A stretch of DNA of 63,822 nucleotides, the filler included, from Octopus bimaculoides (Eukaryota), in assembly GCF_001194135.2 (NCBI RefSeq). It is 4 parts of 4 records of this genome, joined end to end, with 100 filler letters (N's around TTAATTAATTAA, not from the genome) between each part and the next. Parts side by side here need not be neighbours in the genome. Positions count along the whole stretch, not along the records: positions 1 to 15,206 come from NC_069000.1; positions 15,307 to 41,512 come from NC_068981.1; positions 41,613 to 60,086 come from NC_068983.1; 1 more part is not named here. One strand, given 5' to 3'. The notes beneath the pieces are model-generated. The model did not search any database. It was not told the DNA's origin and saw nothing but the letters and a program-made list of their open reading frames with translations. Positions 3,331 to 41,970 of the stretch are shown here, piece by piece (within the stretch, counting starts at the first letter, position 1; every line of letters begins with the position of its first letter). Position numbers and translations under genes: made by a program.

Positions 3331-3378
3331 TAACTTGATGCACATTTCTGCCTCTTTGGGCTTCGTCAGTAGCAAGCA
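3331..3378 (-). ncRNA. Type-I hammerhead ribozyme motif (degenerate stem I)
   Basis: Minus strand: TTGCTA-CTGACGA-aGCCcaaagaGGCa-GAAA-TGTGCA-TC^AAGTTA; intact CUGANGA/GAAA core, near-palindromic helix III, AUC triplet. Confidence 0.7.
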
Positions 3379-3672
3379 TCCGCTGGCAACATGAGGTTAG
3401 TCGCTACTGATAGATAAACATTGATTGAAAAATCAGTGATGTAAGAATTAGCAGGCTTGTTGAATAAATATTCGCTGTGTGTAACAAAAACCAGAAGCAG
3501 TACTAATTTAAAATGGCAGCTTCTGTATGATAATTAATGCAGATATATCACTGGAAGGCGATTTAACTGCAGTATTTGTCCGTAGATAATATTTTTTTAT
3601 AGAAGTATGGTGTTAAAATTCACAAAAAATAGATCAATAGAAGAATCAAATCGACCACCAGCAATGACAGTA

Positions 3673-3720
3673 TTGCTAGCTATGCATTTCTGCCTCTTTG
3701 AGCTTCGTCAATAGCAAGCA
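3673..3720 (-). ncRNA. Type-I hammerhead ribozyme motif (core mutated, perfect stem I)
   Basis: Minus strand: TTGCTA-TTGACGA-aGCTcaaagaGGCa-GAAA-TGCATA-GC-TAGCAA; 6-bp stem I TTGCTA/TAGCAA; C3 and U16.1 altered. Confidence 0.6.
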
Positions 3721-4424
3721 CTCACTGCCAACTTCATACTAATACAAATTCCGTTGTTATTGATATAGATAAACAGTGTTTGAAATATCACTGATGTTAC
3801 AATTAGCTGACTGGTTGAATAAGTATTCCTTATGTGCAACAGAAGCAGTGTTAGTTTGAAAAAGCAACCCGTGTATCATCCTTAATGCAGATACATCACG
3901 AAAAGCCGAATAAATCGCAGTATTTGTTTTAAGATAACATCTACTAACGTACAATGTTAAAAGACACCCTCTTCAATTCTTAACTTCCTTACTTTTTCTT
4001 CATCTAGTATCATATATTTCTCACTCTTTCACACTGTCTTTCTCAGCCACTCTTCCTTCACTGCCTCTCTTCTTCAACTTCAATTCTTTACTCGTTTACT
4101 TGCCTACAGCCTAAAAGACAATGTCATATTTTCTCATTTCCTCACTGTCATACGAAGGGCAAGGTCCGAAATGTCAGATTTATTCCTTCCTCACGGCTAT
4201 TCAAGCTATCAAACAACGCGTTTATACACCCAGCATCTTTCCAGAAACTATCAAAAACATAAAATGAAGCAAAATACAAAACGTTAACGTCAGAATATGC
4301 GGAGACTATCACAAAACAATATATGAAATTGTGTTGTTTAGTTCTCAAGTAATTGTTACATATGGAGCTTTCATACACTGGAGATTATTCTAGCATTATG
4401 AAATACCAACAGAAGACGATGAAC

Positions 4425-4620
4425 TGGTAGAAGTTAGCACGCTAGACAAAATGATTTGCGGCATTTCTCCCGGTTCTTTACGTTCTGCGTTCAAGTTCCG
4501 TCGAGGTTTATTCTGCTTTTCATCTACTCAGGGTCGATAGAATAAACCCCAATCGAGTACAGGGGCCGATGTAAGCGACTTGCTCCCACCTCTAAGATTG
4601 CTGTCTTTGTGTTCAAAATC
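4425..4620 (+). mobile_element. SINE family B (diverged copy)
   Basis: actggtagaagttagcacgc...ttacgttctgcgttcaagttccgtcgagg...ggtcgat matches the copy at 12716. Confidence 0.7.
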
Positions 4621-4756
4621 AGAAAGAAAGAACTATGAAATGCTTACAGAAAGGAAATAATATAAATATAAACAAGGAAATATCATAGGGTGGAATAAGG
4701 GACCAGGAAAGGATGATTAAAGTAAATGAAATTACACCAGAAAAATGAAATATCAT

Positions 4757-5155
4757 AGGCGCAGGAGTGGCTGTGTGGTAAGTAGCTTGCTTACCAACCA
4801 CATGGTTCCAGGTTCAGTCCCACTGCGTGGCACCTTGGGTAAGTGTCTTCTACTATAGCCTCGGGTCGACCAAAGCCTTGTGAGTGGATTTGGTAGACTG
4901 AAACTGAAAGAAGCCCGTCGTATATATGTATATGTATATATGTGTGTGTGAGTGTGTTTGTGTGTCTGTGTTTGTTCCCTCAACATCGCTTGACAACCGA
5001 TGCTGGTGTGTTTACATCCCCGTAACTTAGAGACCGTAAAAGAGACCGATAGAATAAGTACTAGGCTTACAAAGAATAAGTCCTGAGGTCGATTTGCTCG
5101 ACTAAAGGCGGTGCTTCAGCATGGCCGCAGTCAAATGACAGAAACATGTAAAAGA
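4757..5155 (+). mobile_element. SINE family A, full-length, with internal (TA/TG)n core
   Basis: tRNA-like head (gtggctgtgtggtaag...ggttcagtccc), central microsatellite, tail ending atgacagaaacatgtaaaaga; more than 10 related copies in the window. Confidence 0.85.
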
Positions 5156-5159
5156 GCAT

Positions 5160-39165: not shown

Positions 39166-39384
39166 TATATATGAGAGTACGAAAGCAAAGAATTAAATGA
39201 ATATACCAAAGCCATAAAAATACGTACAAGACGTATAATACCAATCTCAATAAGATACATAAGCAAAATCATTCACTCGTTTGCACAAATATTACTTTTG
39301 CCATGAATGATACGAGAGTAAGTATAGAAATGAGACTAAAGATATGAACATAGCAGTTAATATTAACAGTATATGTATACTTAC

Positions 39385-39399
39385 GTTGTTGGTATTCAT
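39385..39399 (-). CDS. IL17-like: IL-17-like paralogue 2, coding exon 1 (MNTNN), phase 0; spliced product 181 aa
   Basis: ATG AAT ACC AAC AAC|gtaagt perfect donor; joins in frame to VILQVAIFLL..; the same micro-exon is present in paralogue 1. Confidence 0.75.
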
Positions 39400-39532
39400 T
39401 ATAATGGTCGGTCACTTGGAATGGAAAGAATGACAATATTATAATATATGTAGATATTATCAAATAAAGCTTGAGCGTGTTAGCTTCTTAAAATAATATT
39501 CGTTTGTGAAGATACCAACTACTCTGAGGTTA

Positions 39533-39565
39533 CTTATATATAATATTTGACGCAGGGGATTTACC
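39533..39565 (-). promoter_or_regulatory. Candidate IL-17 core promoter: TATATAAG, CRE-like TGACGCA, kB-like GGGGATTTAC
   Basis: About 135 bp upstream of the ATG, with no upstream ATG in the implied 5' UTR; TGACGC is conserved in paralogue 1 (27369). Confidence 0.3.
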
Positions 39566-40064
39566 TTATGTCATAAAGCTGAATCAAAACAAAAAGATTA
39601 TAAATATAAACAGGAGGAACTAACAAAATGACATAAGATTTCACTTTCAGTAAAGTGTAGTATCTAATATTAAACGAGAAGTATGTGTGACCTATATAAC
39701 TCGAGGAAAGCCTGAAGTAACCAGGATATAACTTATTTATTTCCTCCTTTACCTATTAATCGAATGTGGTATGACTCGCCCTAATACAGATGAACTTAGT
39801 GAAATACTCTTGTGTAGTGTTCCGTTCTATTTTTAATATACTTTATTATTTCTCTTGCCTATCTATCTATCTATCTATCTATCTATCTATCTATCTATCT
39901 ATCTATCTATTTATCTAACGATCGATCGATCCATCCATCGGATCAGTCGGTAGCTACTCTAAATTTCACCTGTAGGTGCATCAGAACTTCAGGCAAGTTA
40001 TGATAATATATGTTTATACATATGTATGTACAAACCTATGGAGTCATAACTATATATATACGTA

Positions 40065-41175
40065 TGATTTCTTCCCAACGATATGTTTCTAGGTTCAGAC
40101 CCATTGCGTGCTATAGCTTCGTGGCGACCAAAGCCTTGTGAATGTATTTTGGTAGACGGAAACTGAAAGGAATATGTGGTATATATATATATATATATAT
40201 GTGTGTGTGTGTGTGTGTGTGTGTGTGTGTGTGTGTGTGTGTGTGTGTGTGTGTNNNNNNNNNNNNNNNNNNNNNNNNNNNNNNNNNNNNNNNNNNNNNN
40301 NNNNNNNNNNNNNNNNNNNNNNNNNNNNNNNNNNNNNNNNNNNNNNNNNNNNNNNNNNNNNNNNNNNNNNNNNNNNNNNNNNNNNNNNNNNNNNNNNNNN
40401 NNNNNNNNNNNNNNNNNNNNNNNNNNNNNNNNNNNNNNNNNNNNNNNNNNNNNNNNNNNNNNNNNNNNNNNNNNNNNNNNNNNNNNNNNNNNNNNNNNNN
40501 NNNNNNNNNNNNNNNNNNNNNNNNNNNNNNNNNNNNNNNNNNNNNNNNNNNNNNNNNNNNNNNNNNNNNNNNNNNNNNNNNNNNNNNNNNNNNNNNNNNN
40601 NNNNNNNNNNNNNNNNNNNNNNNNNNNNNNNNNNNNNNNNNNNNNNNNNNNNNNNNNNNNNNNNNNNNNNNNNNNNNNNNNNNNNNNNNNNNNNNNNNNN
40701 NNNNNNNNNNNNNNNNNNNNNNNNNNNNNNNNNNNNNNNNNNNNNNNNNNNNNNNNNNNNNNNNNNNNNNNNNNNNNNNNNNNNNNNNNNNNNNNNNNNN
40801 NNNNNNNNNNNNNNNNNNNNNNNNNNNNNNNNNNNNNNNNNNNNNNNNNNNNNNNNNNNNNNNNNNNNNNNNNNNNNNNNNNNNNNNNNNNNNNNNNNNN
40901 NNNNNNNNNNNNNNNNNNNNNNNNNNNNNNNNNNNNNNNNNNNNNNNNNNNNNNNNNNNNNNNNNNNNNNNNNNNNTATATATATATATATATATATATA
41001 TATATATATATATGAAGGGCCTCCTTCAGTTTTCGCCTGCCAAATCCTCTCACAAGTCATTAGTAGGCTCGCGGCTATAGCAGAAGACATTTGCCCAATA
41101 TGCCACTCACTAGGACTGAACCGGGAACCATGTGGTTGGGAAGTAAGCTTCTTACCAAGTAGCCACTCCTGCTTT
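40065..41175. mobile_element. Two SINE family A heads in convergent orientation (40065-40254 +, 41005-41175 -) flanking a gap
   Basis: Both run into (TA/TG)n cores at the gap edges. Confidence 0.7.
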
Positions 41176-41612
41176 AGATACTGTAGATCCACAGTAGCCA
41201 TGAAAACATTTGTCGAAGCAAGGTCAAATAGTCCGATGACTATATGGTGACGTACGTCTTTCCTTCCTTCTCTTTCTCTCTCTCCTTACACACACACATG
41301 CATACACATGTATGTATGTGCATATTTATGTCTATCTATCTATCTATCTATCTATCTATCTATCTATCTATCTATCTATCTATCTATCTATCAAAGCTTT
41401 CCATAGGGTAGACCATCACTACTTGGAAGCCGTCCTCATAGCGGCTGGTTTAGGTCCCGTCTTCCGCGGTTGGATCGCTGCCTTATACAGCGGCATCCGC
41501 TCGGTAGTTCGCNNNNNNNNNNNNNNNNNNNNNNNNNNNNNNNNNNNNNNNNNNNNTTAATTAATTAANNNNNNNNNNNNNNNNNNNNNNNNNNNNNNNN
41601 NNNNNNNNNNNN

Positions 41613-41970
41613 TATACTACACGTTATCGTGCAGTTACTGTTAATACTTCATTTAGAGAATTAACATTGCTTGTTTTCACCTTTTCGATATCAGTGAAGA
41701 ATTTCACTGGAAAAGTAGATATAAGATTGCCAGGATTTTGTCTCTCTCACCAGGGTCAGTGGCTATCGAACGCCGACGAAGGGAAATAACCCTGAAATCC
41801 GGATCCGTTCGTGCTACAGATCATGGTGAGAGGGATAACTTCCCTTGGCAAACAGGACACAGTCGTGTGTCGATAAGCCGGCTGGAGGAGATGTCCTCCT
41901 GGGGCTAAAAGCAACAGTAACATCCACCCCTAGGGGTCAGCCACACTTAAGTGGCAATATACTACACTTT
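41613..41970 (+). repeat. Hammerhead-containing unit C (345-bp period, terminally redundant)
   Basis: tatactacac recurs at 41613 and 41958; left side is a gap, right side ends in (TA)n. Confidence 0.8.
41767..41811 (+). ncRNA. Near-perfect type-I hammerhead ribozyme motif (U4C variant), predicted cut after 41805
   Basis: CGAACG-CCGACGA-AGGG aaataa CCCT-GAAA-TCCGGA-TC^CGTTCG; all three stems pair, ATCCGGAT is palindromic. Confidence 0.8.

Follow-up and report, generated by a model that had tools for sequence, protein, structure and literature searches.

The subject of this report is a 63,822-nucleotide stretch of DNA from Octopus bimaculoides (assembly GCF_001194135.2), composed of four parts of the genome joined end to end and hereafter called the window, and in particular the non-coding repeat units in it that carry type I hammerhead ribozyme motifs. 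These units form two families and are probably retrozymes that lack long terminal repeats (non-LTR retrozymes), likely moved by Penelope-like elements (PLEs). What is observed comprises the motifs, the covariation of their stems, head-to-tail units, the copy number of one subfamily (C), the insertion scar of a fragment (D), (TA)n ends, a neighbouring PLE, and one site occupied in two B units by a long interspersed nuclear element (LINE). The original prediction of a cephalopod retrozyme family is retained in its essentials: canonical type I hammerheads, non-coding units of 342-354 bp with a GC content below 50%, a self-paired monomer (z -8.5), high copy number, and Penelope scars. Its minimal hammerhead type, its three families, its shared A-U pair, and its active circular RNA are not retained.

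The C3 residues of the five motifs lie at window positions 3369 (-), 3711 (-), 30406 (+), 33066 (+), and 41773 (+). In all five, the core boxes are exactly 14 nt apart, loop III has 6 nt, and the layout consists of a helix I of 6 bp, a helix II of 4 bp, and a helix III of 1-2 bp with a palindromic loop. In all five, too, the 3' side of loop 1 opens with U and loop 2 closes with A, which are presumably the usual bases of the loop-loop contact. Past an internal loop, helix I is prolonged by a distal stem, the sequence of which varies among A1, B, and C. At position 10.1-11.1, C has A-U, B2 has U-A, B1 has C.A, and A1 and A2 have A.A, so that the A-U/U-A pair once thought to be a shared trait is found in only two of the five (C and B2), and the invariant pair is the G-C one step inside. 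Helix sizes of this kind are the "canonical" metazoan type I layout, not the "minimal" one that had been claimed (PMC4209133). They are present in all five units, and complete pairing is present in one, together with U4C.

A pattern built from the five motifs matches the window five times against 0.01 expected, and none of 100 shuffles reaches five; this count overstates the case, because the pattern was written with the five motifs already seen. Pairing and covariation are a more independent test. Across the five motifs, 57 of 70 cells (81%) are paired in helices I and II and the helix III palindrome, 11 of the 14 helix pairs have changed on both sides, and the covariation score is reached by none of 500 shuffles, whereas sliding the partners by 1-3 columns leaves pairing at only 25-42%. 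Note that this score, which comes from five related rows and a structure taken from the same sequences, is not a probability. Compensation is also seen outside the core: the unit hairpins of B and C have double changes at 9 of 42 predicted pairs (three sequences), and in reads the distal helix I pair 41760/41816 changes from T-A to C-G.

It is virtually impossible that the motifs arose as random matches within repeats of an ordinary kind, and covariation and periodicity already refute this explanation. Such an explanation could point to the Rfam hammerhead models, which miss all five motifs (E up to 5 for the whole window and up to 10 for motif C alone), and to the 30 window sites found in a relaxed scan with two mismatches. 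However, it accounts neither for the fixed spacing, the presence of a single motif in every unit of two families that are unrelated, and the covariation, nor for the new palindromes carried by reads of other copies. The five motifs are thus real, each with its C3 located, a constant 14-nt spacing, and a periodic unit around it, and the covariation of stems proposed for them is upheld. Three relaxed sites, at 24439 (-), 26391 (-), and 36771 (+), were discarded for want of a unit, the fixed spacing, and a palindrome, and the Rfam microRNA matches in the window were dismissed as microsatellite or hairpin artefacts. Pattern scans of metagenome and viral contigs gave no match.

The motifs differ in their state of preservation. 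Motif A2 (3331-3375, minus strand) has intact core boxes and a palindromic helix III, with A.A at 10.1/11.1 and four of six helix I pairs, and A1 (3673-3717, minus) has C3U, U16.1G, and A.A at 10.1/11.1 with all six helix I pairs. Motif B1 (30400-30444, plus) has U16.1A, C.A at 10.1/11.1, and a broken palindrome; B2 (33060-33104, plus) has an intact core, U-A at 10.1-11.1, and the palindrome, with three of six pairs in helix I and three of four in helix II. Judging from these changes, A2, A1, B1, and B2 are each likely dead, and four of the five window motifs thus appear to be decayed fossils. Motif C (41767-41811, plus) has helices I and II fully paired, a palindromic helix III, A-U at 10.1-11.1, and U4C. 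It is the only one of the five that folds as a hammerhead (pair probabilities 0.98-1.0), with a predicted cut after 41805, and its helix I is prolonged into a long stem (41725-41850). The palindromic helix III expected of every motif is thus perfect or wobble-paired in C, B2, and A2, and broken in A1 and B1.

The repeat units have lengths of 342, 354, and 345 bp, encode nothing, have GC contents of 35-46%, and are joined head to tail in both DNA and RNA. Family A forms an array at 3176-3967 (minus strand) with a 342-bp period, about 2.3-2.6 old units that are 70% alike, and a GC content of 35%. Unit B1 (30380-30751, plus; 354-bp period) extends from a 5' boundary about 26 nt before C3 up to the LINE, beyond which the right target duplication and a partial unit B2 (33040-33261, plus; 82% to B1) end in (TA)n. 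Unit C (41613-41972, plus; 345-bp period) belongs to a young, very high-copy subfamily; its 3' end is in (TA)n and its 5' side is concealed by an assembly gap. Target duplications at the ends of A, B, and C are either not visible or hidden.

The predicted unit lengths are borne out by the array period in A and by head-to-tail joints in B and C. The B joints connect 30750 to 30397 in all three DNA runs and 30752 to 30399 in two of the three; the C joint from 41968 to 41624 is seen in 94, 77, and 74 RNA reads of three runs, and that from 41957 to 41613 in one DNA contig. These joints support the claim that the motifs lie inside tandem units, but the only unbroken tandem within the window is that of A: the LINE divides B, and C amounts to roughly one unit that follows a gap. 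Accordingly, the two-motif state within the window is a decayed pair in A, an interrupted one in B, and a single motif beside a gap in C; tandem junctions are present elsewhere in the genome reads, whose length of 150 nt is too short for two motifs. B and C match along the full length of the unit, at 64% over 218 nt with z 25 and at 66% over 99 nt with z 10, and A is unrelated to either (z at most 1.5). By this comparison the supposed three families reduce to two, A and B together with C.

Subfamily C is represented by 8,148 contigs of one DNA run with a summed depth of 0.5-2.4 million, against about 40 for single-copy stretches; unit C is thus present at thousands of copies or more, overlapping contigs inflating the summed depth. 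It appears young from the match of fragment D to unit C at 93 of 94 nt. Compared with shuffles, the monomers of C (z -8.5) and B1 (z -4.0) are strongly self-paired.

Fragment D (36592-36755), a piece of family C that has no hammerhead, bears the marks of its insertion. Its inverted arm of 50 nt (36603-36652) and its direct arm of 94 nt (36651-36744), which is 93/94 identical to unit C and 44 nt longer than the inverted arm, are joined head to head and enclosed by an 11-bp target duplication (36592-36602 and 36745-36755). An inverted arm with a tail is the structure of insertions made by endonuclease-bearing PLEs (10.1101/2021.04.23.441226), and by analogy fragment D suggests the scar of a Penelope-type insertion. 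In addition, B2 and C have (TA)n at their 3' ends. The B and C insertions extend through the cleavage site to a point 150-170 nt past it, which would make their template an uncut multimer or a circle.

A PLE is itself present next to unit B1. It consists of a decayed, 5'-truncated reverse transcriptase (RT)/GIY-YIG gene at 28387-30026 (plus strand), with frameshifts, stops, and a CxCx5C linker, a 3' non-coding end at 30027-30379 (plus) that has no homology to any of the three units, and an inverted copy of the 3' end at 28133-28370 (minus; 80% to 30120-30367). In a HMMER search the gene is 36-57% alike to P0005, its best full-length relative, in which both DKT and CxCx5C are present; in the window element, CxCx5C and the domain order are present and the DKT region is absent with the missing 5' part. 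PLEs of the Hydra clade are described as having DKT, CxCx5C, and insertion in (TA)n (10.1101/2021.04.23.441226), and the window PLE would fit this clade by its CxCx5C and its relative's DKT, a candidate placement based on motifs. The Pfam GIY-YIG match on the element is weak (E 0.012), and Pfam recognised none of seven PLE fragments as RT or GIY-YIG. Word-based protein searches gave no match for two PLE fragments, which the HMMER search did match.

Unit B1 starts about 26 nt before C3 and 13 nt past the stop of the PLE inverted arm (30367). The two elements may have arrived by successive insertions at one target, or a single enzyme may have run past the 5' end of a retrozyme RNA and then jumped to PLE RNA as template; the similar divergence of the PLE arms (80%) and of B1/B2 (82%) allows both histories. 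For the PLE-B1 junction in other copies, no loose end was found among the matches listed. The same arrangement raises the question of whether the B and C units are pseudo-LTRs (pLTRs) of autonomous PLEs, the apparent retrozymes being truncated PLE ends. B1 directly follows the Penelope-like gene and its 3' end, the arms and the B units are about equally diverged, and the neighbour's own 3' end has no clear hammerhead; moreover, hammerheads occur in PLE pLTRs (PMC4209133) and Xenopus retrozymes resemble pLTRs (10.64898/2026.07.22.740005). We nevertheless regard this explanation as improbable, since head-to-tail closure of the units occurs at 345 and 354 bp and includes no PLE sequence, the inverted arm stops short of B1, and the hammerheads are canonical in five of five, not of the minimal type of metazoan PLEs (PMC4209133). 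In particular, what lies upstream of the hammerhead in the units bears no relation to the PLE 3' end (no sequence shared with A, B, or C; z at most 0.5), so that B1 is apparently not a pLTR of its neighbour.

The B units are interrupted by an L1/Tx1-like LINE remnant at 30752-33039 (plus strand), which has both ends, a large internal deletion, and a zf-RVT domain, and which is 48-51% alike to RT proteins, the named relative being from Argonauta. Its left target duplication (30734-30751, plus) is identical at 15 of 18 positions to 33040-33057 and covers positions -26 to -9 from C3, the insertion lying 26 nt before the core; since the duplicated 18 bp are unit sequence, the LINE entered a pre-existing unit. 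Contigs with zero differences back parts of this locus, including the 3' junction. Another LINE copy (11 differences in 137 nt) occupies the same site of a different B unit, one with a different palindrome, in all three DNA runs, a diverged LINE 5' end also lies on a B flank, and B units without the LINE (empty sites) exist in the DNA runs. Of the LINE ends seen, two of two 3' ends and two of two 5' ends lie on B units, at the same site, and close copies number about 3-5 by depth; a target-specific Tx1 family would have more than 20% of its copies flanked by a single target at a single site.

This association could also be read the other way round, with the units as short interspersed nuclear element (SINE)-like passengers of the LINE and two hammerheads freeing the LINE RNA. 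The LINE is indeed co-oriented between two hammerheads, and immediately upstream of the gap that precedes C there is a Tx1 RT fragment. We consider the passenger explanation very improbable: a duplication of unit sequence brackets the LINE and empty units exist, LINE ends are present in 3-5 copies against thousands of units, there is no shared 3' tail or poly(A), and the structure of fragment D is of Penelope type, not of LINE type. The fragment in question (41393-41512, plus; 75-80% to P0001/P0002) is a short RT piece between (TCTA)n and the gap preceding unit C, and it may represent a second LINE-retrozyme association concealed by that gap. A further decayed Tx1-like 3' remnant lies at 54359-55700 (plus).

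Families A, B, and C share a 10-nt motif 85-87 nt before C3, located at 3788-3797 in A (minus strand; 86 nt before C3), at 30673-30682 in B1 (plus; about 60 nt ahead of the point where the LINE inserted), and at 41688-41697 in C (plus; 85 nt before C3). Eight of its ten columns are identical in A, B, and C, which none of 300 shuffles of A reaches; an unrestricted motif search between the upstream regions of A and B/C was not above shuffles, and only the fixed-distance test was. The proximal element of small nuclear RNA (snRNA) genes is located about 60 nt before the transcription start, and we infer that the shared motif is a candidate proximal promoter element of this type.

Unit C RNA was examined in three runs of one study, about 6% of each being read, and amounts to 897, 808, and 652 reads (57-70 per million). 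The core box of motif C is CCGACGA, i.e., it has U4C. In run X24, C>T reaches at least 5% of reads in only four places, all elsewhere in unit C, so C4 is present in more than 95% of reads, where reads at least 85% alike to unit C are counted. In X22 and X7 a single C>T place each is unlisted, and in X23 two are, which leaves the C4 count not closed in these runs; U4 relatives are visible at one DNA loose end. Residue 17 is A, which is permitted, in 56-64% of RNA reads. Runs X15-X19, presumably RNA, contain 0.45-0.62 of the sampled words (0.52 of those of unit C in X18, which is labelled as a second organism), and X20 contains 0.07; none of these six was used as evidence.

The RNA also differs from the DNA by A>G and T>C changes. 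At 41637 and 41646, A>G is seen in 12-22% of RNA reads and in none of the DNA run; overall there are 28, 41, and 27 A>G places in RNA against 8 in DNA, and 21, 14, and 12 T>C places against 6. An RNA-only cluster of A>G at 41626-41660, in the AT-rich stem of unit C, reaches 22-31% of reads. These changes likely reflect adenosine-to-inosine editing of both-strand transcripts, although the DNA and RNA come from different animals. The junction reads fit circles or tandem read-through.

Taken as retrozymes, the units would be transcribed as multimers, possibly from a small-RNA-type promoter within each unit with a start about 26 nt before C3. The multimers would cut themselves into monomers of 342-354 nt, possibly ligated into circles, and cleavage would be aided by dimer pairing through the helix III palindrome and by the contact between loops 1 and 2, which may offset U4C. 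The RT and endonuclease of PLEs, with the Hydra clade as the putative helper, would copy the units back into AT-rich DNA, and the LINE would target the retrozyme start sequence-specifically. A more extended chain can be drawn, which we hold only as a tentative and rather doubtful one: retrozymes with an snRNA-type promoter would be copied by the Hydra clade into (TA)n with occasional jumps between retrozyme and PLE RNA (the PLE-B1 junction lies at the start), the Tx1 LINE would borrow the promoter by targeting that start, and the young subfamily would have fixed a slowed U4C ribozyme that favours uncut multimers or stable circles as templates.

Several points weigh against this interpretation or parts of it. 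There is no pile-up of read starts or ends at the cleavage site in any of the three RNA runs, which is weak evidence given fragmented libraries, and unit C reads are sparse and equal in both directions; such reads, with their A>G and T>C changes, are as expected for passive two-strand read-through. The active circular RNA of the original prediction is therefore not supported. U4C lowers activity in vitro, with viroid infectivity still possible, and a mispair at 10.1-11.1 is a rejection criterion in the same source (PMC3088659); only one of nine Xenopus retrozyme dimers was cut in vitro (10.64898/2026.07.22.740005). The A monomer has no excess of folding over shuffles (z -1.1), and the neighbouring PLE, with no unit sequence in its 3' end, is at most a candidate helper. 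Targeting by the LINE would rest on two copies, and the Tx1-like remnant at 54359-55358 has no unit A, B, or C in its flanks. As for the promoter, the test of the shared motif was designed after the motif had been seen, and the octamer has no match in B or C and only one-mismatch matches in A.

Some of these points would also fit a family that spreads as a DNA repeat or as passively copied RNA, with a non-functional ribozyme and no monomer or circle today. The nearly fixed U4C of subfamily C, the missing cleavage ends, the low two-directional RNA, and the decay of four of the five window copies are in its favour. On the other hand, subfamily C retains all helices, the palindrome, and the permitted residue 17, and has a compensatory change in distal helix I; U4C supports viroid infectivity (PMC3088659), and circles would be lost from the libraries if these were poly(A)-selected. 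We therefore judge a non-functional ribozyme to be distinctly improbable and prefer retrozymes.

The rest of the window contains many microsatellites and gaps. Two IL-17-like genes, at 22619-23053 and 37707-38273 (both minus strand; Pfam IL17, E 5e-13 and 6e-12), lie in duplicated blocks (22415-23348/37506-38447, 86%; 26254-27769/38494-39939), with the B and D insertions in between. A near-perfect palindrome of 202 bp (38964-39165, 98%) is possibly another head-to-head stump. A non-LTR retrotransposon remnant at 55901-57260 (minus), which we take to be R4/Dong-like by its motifs, ends at a (TAT)48 run, and a transposase fragment at 18428-18772 (plus) is presumably mariner-like by motif. Minisatellite arrays of 29/58 bp and 23 bp are found at 6194-7781 and 44255-44784. 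Two SINE-like families are dispersed in numerous copies, in either orientation, one at 4756-5155 and roughly a dozen further places and the other at 8922-13710. Degenerate coding repeats, related to each other, occupy 5208-5852 and 48509-49122.

In the literature we came across no account of retrozymes in the octopus, nor of LINEs that target such units; subscription papers were outside this coverage, and supplements may list cephalopod motifs. The earlier impression that the family had not been described agrees with this, but elements of this kind are already on record from mussels, corals, axolotl, and many vertebrates, and hammerheads have been counted in the giant squid. Specifically, metazoan non-LTR retrozymes are reported as 220-245 bp in coral, 350-390 bp in mussel, and 330/350 bp in axolotl (Cervera and de la Pena 2020, PMC7229834); the available part of a survey of 35 genomes includes many vertebrates and no mollusc (Li et al. 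2026, 10.64898/2026.07.22.740005); and the giant squid genome has 235 Hammerhead_1 hits (PMC6962438). Active Penelope and L1-Tx1 families are reported for O. vulgaris in a paper whose main text has no ribozyme term (PMC13282606), and no cephalopod is named in the available part of PMC4209133.

The present units extend non-LTR retrozymes to octopods. Mobilisation by Penelope has so far been proposed from co-occurrence and pLTR similarity (PMC7229834; 10.64898/2026.07.22.740005), whereas an inverted arm, a tail, a target duplication, and (TA)n are direct insertion marks that bear on which autonomous element moves retrozymes, with a candidate clade named. Animal hammerhead counts may be too low, since a high-copy U4C family is missed by Rfam and strict descriptors. 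The near-fixed U4C offers a natural experiment on the amount of cleavage that a retrozyme requires. Targeting of the retrozyme start by a LINE, if true, would add a new class of target to those of Tx1 elements.

Compared with known systems, the octopus units most directly recall metazoan non-LTR retrozymes: they are head-to-tail, non-coding units of 342-354 bp, within the 150-450 bp expected of the class, with a GC content below 50% and one canonical type I hammerhead each, a weak palindromic helix III, a self-paired monomer, a duplication longer than 4 bp, and PLEs in the same genome. They differ in that their RNA is sparse in the runs examined, U4C is nearly fixed in C, and helix II opens with A-U, U-A, or a mismatch, followed one step further in by G-C; in axolotl HHR_Amex2 the opening position is U.U (PMC7229834). 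Insertion scars and LINE targeting, moreover, are not described in the available parts of the metazoan retrozyme papers (PMC7229834; 10.64898/2026.07.22.740005). With endonuclease-bearing PLEs of the Hydra clade, a decayed member of which adjoins B1, the units share an inverted 5' arm with a one-sided tail (44 nt in fragment D, against 30-40 in PLEs), (TA)n targets, and a type I hammerhead near the element end. Unlike PLEs, they encode nothing, have no sequence in common with the neighbouring PLE 3' end, and have canonical instead of minimal hammerheads, the minimal form of metazoan PLEs having a long helix II, a short helix I, and no loop-loop contact (PMC4209133).

Newt satellite 2 is likewise a hammerhead repeat of about 330-350 bp with a palindromic helix III, and is cited as having an snRNA-type promoter (PMC2220036); in the octopus, the promoter amounts to the shared 10-nt motif at a fitting distance, with no octamer in B or C. 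Finally, target-specific LINEs of the Tx1 clade include Xenopus Tx1 in Tx1D, Keno in U2 genes, and the crocodilian Tx1-Mar (PMC4494074). The octopus LINE resembles them in its L1/Tx1-type second open reading frame (ORF2) and its insertion, in the same orientation, at a single site of a multicopy target, which in known cases includes other transposons. It differs from them in having inserted into a hammerhead repeat, a short way upstream of the ribozyme, as seen in two copies of this Tx1-like element.

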